Shown: positions 60,263 through 60,917 of the stretch, one piece after another
Layout of the letters: every line of letters starts with the position of its first letter
How positions within the stretch are numbered: the first letter of the stretch is position 1
Origin: Candidatus Sericytochromatia bacterium
Lineage (GTDB): Bacteria; Cyanobacteriota; Sericytochromatia; UBA7694; JACMQJ01
DNA: 64,000 bases
Direction of reading: 5' to 3'
Assembly (NCBI GenBank): GCA_046328015.1
Contig: JAXLXH010000001.1
Span: forward strand, 3,173,135 to 3,237,134
The notes under the pieces: model-generated
Told to the model about the DNA's origin: nothing
Database searches by the model: none
Seen by the model: the letters and a program-made list of their open reading frames with translations, nothing else
Position numbers and translations under genes: made by a program

Positions 60263-60610
60263 ATGATTGTTCATATTTTAGAAAAAAAAGATTGGGAATA
60301 TGCAAAAAAAGAAAATATTTATAACCCTAAATCATTGGAAATAGAAGGCTTTATTCATTGTTCAAAAGTAGACCAAATAGTAGGTGTTTCTAATCTTCAT
60401 TATAAAAATAAAAAAGATATGCTTATGATTGTTATAAATGAAAATCTACTAATTAATAAAGTATTGTATGAAGATTTATATAATGAAGGTAAATCTTTTC
60501 CGCATATATATGGAACTATTAACATTGATTCTATAATTGAAGTTATTGATTTTCCTTGTAATAATGAAGGCTTTTTTGAATTAACAGAATCGAATTATAA
60601 ATATAAATAA
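60263..60610 (+). CDS. DUF952-like small protein (tentative), 3' end inside duplicated segment
   Basis: EGFIHCSKVDQI and FPHIYGTINIDSIIEV resemble DUF952 from memory; last 19 nt lie in the 60592-60917 duplication. Confidence 0.45.
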   Translation: MIVHILEKKDWEYAKKENIYNPKSLEIEGFIHCSKVDQIVGVSNLHYKNKKDMLMIVINENLLINKVLYEDLYNEGKSFPHIYGTINIDSIIEVIDFPCNNEGFFELTESNYKYK

Positions 60611-60830
60611 ATTCGTTATTATTTATAATAAAATCAGAAAAAGGACCATCATTATCATAAATTTGTTTATAAAAATTACCAATTCTATTTTGATTTATTT
60701 CTAAAAAAATTATCCAATTTAAATAAAAAATAATTATATTATCTTCAATAATATTTATCTTTGAATCTAATTTGCAAATATTATCAAATTTATTATCTAA
60801 ATCAAAAGAATCTATTAATTTATATTTCAT
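60543..60830 (-). pseudogene. truncated duplicate of the P1 5' end
   Basis: First 78 aa identical to P1 except one substitution, then diverges to an early stop. Confidence 0.7.
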
Positions 60831-60917
60831 ATTATCCTTATTAATAAAAAAATTAAAAATTTTATTTCCAAATCATAGTTAATCACCTAAATCATACGTA
60901 AATCATAGTTCAGACTA
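60592..60917. repeat. segmental duplication of 56885-57209 (~325 bp, ~98-99% identical)
   Basis: Direct alignment shows only ~5 mismatches; left junction at gaattataaatataaataaattcg. Confidence 0.85.
60860..60917 (-). promoter_or_regulatory. conserved leader/promoter repeat copy b
   Basis: tttatttccaaatcatagttaatcacctaaatcatacgtaaatcatagttcagact; three AAATCATA[GC]GT units. Confidence 0.55.

Follow-up and report, generated by a model that had tools for sequence, protein, structure and literature searches.

The locus analyzed here raises the question of how the beginning of one gene, P1, came to be present a second time, 3.7 kb from the intact gene, where its reading frame runs antisense into the end of a convergent gene of the DUF952 family. 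The second copy might stem from a plain duplication, from an exchange by a tyrosine recombinase encoded nearby, or from the assembly. The records of P1 and of the truncated copy (the stub) were taken from an NCBI MAG labelled Candidatus Sericytochromatia bacterium, in which they lie on a 3.55-Mb contig. The whole stretch of 64,000 nucleotides that was analyzed is called the window, and all coordinates refer to it (Table 1). With a GC content of about 24%, the window may be unusually GC-poor for a genome that carries the label Sericytochromatia.

Table 1. Coordinates and strands of the features discussed in the text
Feature	Position	Strand	Source
P4-P1 array with proximal leader	52582..57146	-	
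P1 (U0457_13860), intact gene for a likely WD40-like beta-propeller, 337 aa	56110..57123	-	
X_A, repeat copy of the intact gene: module L_A, proximal leader and ribosome-binding site, P1 codons 1-80	56885..57212	-	
L_A, module copy (~70 nt) upstream of P1-P4, with four copy-specific derived substitutions	57143..57212	-	
Segment Y, between the repeat copies	57213..60591	.	
Lipoprotein-like gene (in Y)	57235-58089	-	
Strain-specific block: TPR-like gene, 437-aa gene, DUF952	58090..60591	.	
TPR-like gene (in Y)	58409-58807	+	
437-aa gene of higher GC (in Y)	58811-60124	+	
DUF952 gene, 115 aa, MFN8673154.1, convergent with the stub	60263..60610	+	
DUF952 portion in repeat DNA: third base of codon 110, codons 111-115 (NYKYK), TAA stop	60592..60610	+	
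Truncated ORF (stub), 95 aa, hypothetical protein U0457_13885 (MFN8673155.1)	60543..60830	-	GenBank annotation
X_B, subject copy: module L_B, proximal leader, P1-type codons 1-80	60592..60919	-	
L_B, module copy upstream of the stub	60850..60919	-	
L_C, module copy upstream of an 88-aa ORF (61912-62178) and P5 (60939-61928)	62193..62262	-	
Tyrosine recombinase gene, 282 aa	62356..63204	-	
IRS-like core CAACATAAG-GTTA-CTTATGTTG: 9-bp inverted motif, 4-bp spacer	63265..63286	.	

Results

The repeat has two zones of identity

Alignment, a repeat search and a base-by-base comparison revealed X_A and X_B as an ungapped direct repeat of 328 bp at an offset of 3707, with 320 of 328 positions identical. 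The left edge of the repeat is sharp, 16 of the 25 bases in 56860-56884 being mismatched. On the minus strand, the repeat comprises an upstream module of ~70 nt, which we call L, a proximal leader with an AAGGA ribosome-binding site, and codons 1-80 of P1. Only one of the eight mismatches is coding (57014/60721, resulting in S37L), and the other seven are located in 57147-57212. At codon 80, P1 has TCA and X_B has TCG, both of which specify serine. The bases specific to X_B are 60721 A, 60906 T, and 60917 A.

The identity between the two copies is thus not uniform, as would be expected of a single duplication event, but two-zoned, with 261/262 over 56885-57146 and 59/66 over 57147-57212 (Fisher p = 7e-5). 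An earlier note on this DNA had described a segmental duplication of 56885-57209 at 60592-60917 with about five mismatches. Two near-identical copies are indeed present at these coordinates; however, the mismatches number eight, and the duplication was not a plain one, because there are two identity zones and because the right boundary is the end of a pre-existing multi-copy module. The right-hand ~70 nt are not exclusive to the X_A/X_B pair but represent a three-copy element with its third copy at 62191-62262.

The copied reading frame is a fragment of P1

The annotated 95-aa ORF consists of P1 residues 1-80, with the S37L exchange, followed by 15 unrelated residues that are read antisense through the 3'-end of the DUF952 gene. 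The rest of the gene is absent and the stop codon is out of context. The copy is therefore a truncated paralogue of P1, as had been proposed; it does diverge to an early stop, but the match runs through residue 80 and does not end after residue 78.

The intact P1 gene is the first gene of a tightly packed operon, P1-P2-P3-P4 (52803-57123). Pairwise identities among P1-P5 are 18-35%. Word-index searches yielded no relatives of P1-P5 beyond their own genome, and a full HMMER search with the P family retrieved, below E = 1e-10, only proteins of the same MAG. Those of the weaker profile matches (E = 1e-9 to 1e-4) that were checked against Pfam turned out to be bona fide WD40 proteins, while the Pfam matches of P1-P5 themselves were far under the cut-offs. 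The AlphaFold (AF2) model of P1 is all-beta with a pLDDT of 58, and Foldseek aligned it with seven-bladed propellers at a TM of about 0.5. The fold class of P1-P5 is likely a WD40-like propeller, with a specific family not being assignable. In the AF2 model, residues 1-73 have a pLDDT under 50. Judged from this model, a fragment of 80 of 337 residues that covers the least confidently modelled part of P1 would be unlikely to form a propeller, and the stub is therefore quite probably non-functional as a protein.

Exact-protein look-ups in short-read assemblies retrieved none of the stub, DUF952, P1, P5, or the proteins P0012 and P0037, which are encoded elsewhere in the genome. P1-P4 were absent from Logan, and a P5-family scan of genome contigs gave no match. 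P5 and U0457_12600 (P0012) form a sharp mosaic, which switches at about alignment column 165; the N-terminal halves are 35-47% identical and the C-terminal halves 77-93%. This mosaic suggests that gene conversion may have taken place between distant loci, and recombination in the P family therefore looks recurrent. Just downstream of P4, a long-loop inverted repeat (AAAAACACAC...GTGTGTTTTT) is present at 52640-52700, which may be a terminator between the P1-P4 operon and a PBP-like gene.

The DUF952 gene has a replaced tail

The ORFs of the stub and of the DUF952 gene overlap by 68 bp. The repeat begins, at 60592, with the third base of DUF952 codon 110 and therefore includes codons 111-115 and the stop codon. 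This verifies the earlier placement of the left junction in the last DUF952 codons, with the C-terminus and the stop supplied by duplicated DNA. The further claim of a chimeric 3'-end was substantiated by two homologues. A second DUF952 gene elsewhere in the genome (P0037, MFN8672758.1, 115 aa, ~88% protein identity) has the native AKKYL tail, with the C-terminus ...FFELPETAKKYL (ELPETAKKYL), and the closest outside homologue, P0003, ends with ...FELPEKAKKYLN (ELPEKAKKYLN), whereas the DUF952 protein of the window ends with ...FFELTESNYKYK (ELTESNYKYK). The window protein and P0037 are identical at 99 of 110 residues up to the junction, but at only 2 of 5 past it. Because of these differences in sequence and identity, we conclude that the tail was really replaced.

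The protein matched Pfam DUF952 (PF06108, ADP-ribosyltransferase clan) with 80.7 bits, compared with a gathering cut-off of 23.7, and all 90 profile positions (1-90) were matched by residues 5-94. DUF952 is a family of the ADP-ribosyltransferase clan with conserved His residues (PMC8120803, PMC7955679); H32 and H81 are invariant among the DUF952 homologues, and both are situated upstream of the swap. Domain and length (115 aa) have been kept, the last five residues have been changed, and the chimeric end is cosmetic. At an A+T content of about 80%, a stop within a few codons is to be expected. AT-rich microhomology at the joint is plausible, with a significance that is not demonstrable. L_B may now drive transcription antisense into the DUF952 3'-end.

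The upstream module occurs in three copies

The window contains three copies of L, each of which precedes a gene or an operon, and nhmmer found no further copies in the window. A 35-nt core is identical in L_A, L_B, and L_C, and this core was matched 0 times in dinucleotide shuffles of the window. L_B is more similar to L_C (63/66) than to L_A (59/66). The distance from the stop codon of the preceding co-directional gene to the start of L is 19-93 nt. All copies in the 64 kb of the window share one strand and one orientation, with no inverted copy among them. When two copies from a related strain (contigs L005 and L006, see below) were included, homology ended at the same two edges in all five copies, and it is at the proximal edge of L that the near-identity of X_A and X_B switches. 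Four of the seven distal differences between X_A and X_B are unique to L_A; these are derived, because the orthologous leader on contig L005 has the non-A state.

In the transcribed orientation, L begins with AGTCTGAA, continues with three to four TGATT(T/A) repeats at a spacing of 9-11 nt, and leads to GRAAATAAAAWYTTTTATTT. An AT palindrome (AAATAAAA n TTTTATTT) is located at the gene-proximal edge, and a TAAAAT hexamer is present 28 nt ahead of the P1 start codon. The phased direct repeats and the hexamer suggest that L may be a promoter/operator. A consensus promoter scan, which has no discriminating power in such AT-rich DNA, gave 66 matches versus 75 expected. Unrelated genes follow L in two strains (in the related strain, L is at L005:1895-1950 and L006:3346-3392), and several short-read contigs end within it.

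Several other assignments of L were considered. A structured RNA leader or riboswitch was rejected, since the fold was not better than that of shuffled sequences (z = +0.5 to +1.1) and an Rfam search gave no match at E <= 1. An attC-like hairpin was not found; single-stranded DNA folds of both strands of the three copies contained small AT stems only (z = -0.6 to -1.8). L has no terminal inverted repeats, as its ends, AGTCTGAA... and ...TTTTATTT, are not inverted copies, and no inverted pair was reported inside it. No direct duplication flanks L that would represent a target-site duplication, as in MITE or Correia-like elements. Scans with the leader core gave no match in genome contigs, metagenome contigs (two patterns), and viral contigs.

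Gene content differs between strains

For comparison, a related strain, SRR1027651, was available in the form of two short-read contigs, L005 and L006, both of which contain L. Contig L005 matches the lipoprotein gene and the distal part of L_A with 96.3% identity, and contig L006 matches window positions 49234-52581 with 98.5%. On L005, homology with the window ends exactly at the lipoprotein ATG (58091), and a different, distantly related P-family gene, Px, is found upstream; 58090-60591 is therefore strain-specific. Px was rejected as the source of the stub, with ~26% identity to P1 and no DNA match in the window. On L006, homology ends at 52581; in place of the P4-P1 array of the window, this contig has L, immediately ahead of the PBP-like gene. 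The layouts of both contigs thus differ from that of the window, and therefore the P1-P4 array and the block of TPR-like, 437-aa, and DUF952 genes are strain-variable. Both contigs end inside the repeat core, and they may approach one L copy from two sides. That L marks points at which gene content differs between strains is a mildly interesting by-product. The comparison with related strains that the earlier note had called for thus revealed differences in content at the L edges and at the lipoprotein ATG, but a P5/DUF952 junction in the state before the event was found in no related genome.

Segment Y between the two repeat copies also includes the DUF952 gene. Its 437-aa protein is Ser/Ala-rich, and the gene has a GC content of 0.33, compared with 0.16-0.20 locally; no family match was found in Pfam, NCBIfam, PADLOC, PHROGs, or plasmids. 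The gene of the small TPR-like protein is located 4 nt ahead, and this layout recalls a chaperone plus secreted-effector pair, which it might be by analogy. The A-run that follows the lipoprotein ATG (58068-58089, minus strand) is one base shorter in L005:1022-1040; the frame is therefore shifted, and the gene call moves to an internal Met. Either a sequencing error or homopolymer phase variation may explain the difference. Searches of PADLOC, PHROGs, and NCBIfam for a defence or prophage origin of the island gave no matches except for the recombinase, no phage DNA match of the island was found, and plasmid matches were limited to tnpI. Elsewhere in the window, a Tn5-type DDE transposase (43001-44170) and a MORN-repeat protein (44630-45220) are encoded.

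The adjacent recombinase and its candidate site

The tyrosine recombinase is 49% identical to TnpI of Tn4430 over residues 5-282 of 282 aa (E = 3e-96). About 60 bp upstream of its ATG is an IRS-like core that is unrelated to L. Inverted motifs with a 4-bp spacer are the architecture of the IR1-IR2 core of Tn4430 (PMC2847244; L007). Neither L nor any other part of the window contains a further exact copy of the 9-bp motif. No gene for a Tn3-family transposase adjoins that of the recombinase, which is followed by L_C and the 88-aa ORF. Clear DR1/DR2 motifs were not found near the recombinase gene. After the IRS-like core, upstream of the recombinase gene, there is a -10 element, TGTTATAAT. Upstream of the core (63338-63405, minus strand), direct repeats of ATAAATTGCTTA are spaced ~53 bp apart and accompanied by a further GCTTAT; these repeats could be accessory recombinase-binding motifs. 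From their sequences, recombinase and core would together form an orphan module of the Tn4430 type, with no second site in the window. Being a homologue of TnpI that has a probable site of its own, the enzyme is unlikely to act on L, and L was rejected as the site of the adjacent recombinase.

Support from an independent assembly

Short-read contigs of the same strain (SRR26348422) show no mismatches to the window at 58239-60413 and 62212-63378. The ends of these contigs are where they would be predicted from the repeats: L003 stops with the first base of the core common to the three L copies, and L004 stops 30 nt into DNA that is shared with the DUF952 paralogue, as deduced from identical protein sequence. 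No independent read or contig spans the left junction J2 (60591/60592), and the stub and the DUF952 allele of the window are on record from the NCBI MAG only. We are nevertheless highly confident that the sequence of X_B is real.

Discussion

On balance, and with modest confidence, we regard X_B as the product of a non-programmed, evolutionarily recent recombination that joined a dead 5' stub of P1 to a separate copy of L. One end of the exchange would have been provided by homology in or beside L. The other end would have arisen by illegitimate joining within the convergent DUF952 gene, five codons ahead of its stop, perhaps aided by AT-rich microhomology. As a result, the proximal leader, the ribosome-binding site, and codons 1-80 would have become attached to the separate module copy L_B. 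L itself would be a promoter-like module ahead of several transcription units in an AT-rich, strain-variable gene array. L_B probably pre-existed and was not copied from L_A, a view that we hold somewhat more firmly than an even chance. The repeat divergence of 0.4%, compared with 1.5-3.7% between the two strains, the P5 mosaic, the second DUF952 copy, and the strain differences at the L edges and the lipoprotein ATG indicate that recombination in the P family and at this locus is not only recent, as the earlier note had stated, but also recurrent.

An alternative is that the whole 328 bp, including L, were copied from the 5' region of P1 and inserted between P5 and DUF952 in one step, and that L was altered later by gene conversion from other L copies of the genome. 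This would also work, because the mosaic rests on seven sites, of which the four unique to L_A are derived, and the multi-copy nature of L means that donors for conversion exist. It would, however, require that the copied segment happened to stop only a few bases from the distal edge of L, where the homology of L_C also ends, as well as two or three changes unique to X_B in 66 bp compared with one in 262 bp, and we consider it rather unlikely. The layout of the locus could also have been generated by an insertion, if P5, L, and P1 had once been contiguous and the 3.4-kb segment Y had entered in the form of a circle, together with a 5' fragment of P1, by a single Campbell-type crossover. This predicts the X-Y-X order that is observed, from which recombination between X_A and X_B could excise Y again, and different L types on the two sides; the atypical GC content of a gene in Y (0.33 versus 0.16-0.20) and the strain specificity of 58090-60591 would fit as well. 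Yet the lipoprotein gene and L_A are neighbors also in the related strain, and therefore that part of Y is not foreign, and Y has neither a replication or integration function nor a plasmid or phage match. Such an insertion thus appears improbable. In the case of an assembly artefact, the second copy or J2 would stem from misassembled strain variants in the metagenome. The source is a MAG and J2 has no independent support, but the two copies differ at eight positions, two or three of them private to X_B, both flanks of X_B are unique sequence, and J2 has no long shared repeat that could have misled an assembler. In addition, the independent short-read assembly agrees without mismatches with other portions of the locus and is broken where a multi-copy L predicts it, and the DUF952 frame is open at its native length. 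An assembly artefact is therefore unlikely, and we judge its probability to be very low.

The earlier note had thought of cassette exchange at the 5'-ends of paralogues. In this case, L would be the site of a cassette or phase-variation system of the adjacent tyrosine recombinase, and the stub the remnant of an expression site. The recombinase gene 93 nt upstream of L_C, the position of L between co-directional genes, the strain differences exactly at the L edges, and the AT palindrome at the proximal edge would be in line with such a system. Nonetheless, the recombinase is a TnpI homologue (49%) with a canonical IRS-like core in the canonical place ahead of its own gene, and the 9-bp motif of this core is found neither in L nor elsewhere in the window. 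All L copies are direct and have no attC-like hairpin, integron-integrase models score far under their cut-offs, J2 is not at an L edge, and the stub is missing its 3'-end instead of its 5'-end. The direct L copies, the recombinase's own Tn4430-type site, and the missing 3'-end of the stub left the proposal unsupported, and we give it next to no credence. Scarcely more credible is the idea that L is a portable promoter/recombination module and that, at its proximal AT-palindromic edge, an enzyme other than the TnpI homologue brings about the capture and loss of gene blocks. The captured blocks would be P1-P4, the P1 stub, the 88-aa ORF with P5, and the PBP-like gene of the related strain. If true, this would be an undescribed mechanism of cassette shuffling in a deep-branching, very AT-rich lineage.

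The main value of the present results is in the annotation and interpretation of the MAG. U0457_13885 ought to be handled as a fragment of a gene and not as a protein-coding one, and the DUF952 allele of the window has a non-native tail of five residues. In our favored reading, that of a stub joined to a separate L copy, the locus represents a small, well-resolved case of a short multi-copy promoter-like module that served as a recombination anchor. Recombination anchored at L would thereby reshuffle a lineage-restricted array of WD40-like paralogues between closely related strains. No open question hinges on the stub.

Comparison with known systems

Integron arrays (IntI with attC) resemble the locus in having co-directional genes, a repeated intergenic element near a tyrosine recombinase, and strain-variable content. 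However, the recombinase is not of the IntI type (TIGR02249, 103 bits versus a cut-off of 265; NF011946, 64 versus 435), and L is situated upstream of genes, forms no hairpin, and resembles a promoter/operator of phased direct repeats. An integron/attC reading was rejected on the basis of the integrase scores under the cut-offs, of TnpI as the closest relative, and of an L that has no attC-like fold. Invertible shufflons and phase-variable sites are characterized by inverted sites, whereas the L copies are on the same strand throughout the 64 kb.

The recombinase and its surroundings resemble the TnpI/IRS system of Tn4430, a Tn3-family element from Bacillus thuringiensis, in protein sequence (49% identity, 282 versus 284 aa) and in the 9-bp inverted pair with a 4-bp spacer ahead of the recombinase gene, like the IR1-IR2 core. 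In contrast to Tn4430, there is no adjacent Tn3-family transposase, no clear DR1/DR2, and no second IRS in the window. As the recombinase site has no relation to either L or the junctions of the duplication, the recombinase is a neighbor and not the cause. With promoter-carrying short repeats, such as Correia-type elements, and with the 5' expression modules common to paralogue families, such as the conserved 5' regions of variable gene families, L shares its short length, defined ends, and presence in several copies ahead of unrelated genes in different strains. It differs from them in lacking terminal inverted repeats and detectable target-site duplications, in its number of copies (three in the window), and in its predicted promoter role.

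The closest counterparts are partial gene duplications, or relics, that are formed by homology-facilitated illegitimate recombination or by template switching in paralogue arrays of bacteria. They differ from the present case in that the anchor here is a short (~70-nt) multi-copy promoter-like module and not a long repeat or IS element, and in that the mechanism here is deduced, with no example of the ancestral state. In common with such relics, the locus has two nearly identical copies, of which one is bounded by homology that was already present and, on its other side, by a sharp illegitimate junction. Also in common are a truncated ORF that retains a putative promoter and its start, and a small incidental change of a neighboring gene. 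X_B is thus a real, relatively recent leftover of recombination that is ordinary in kind.
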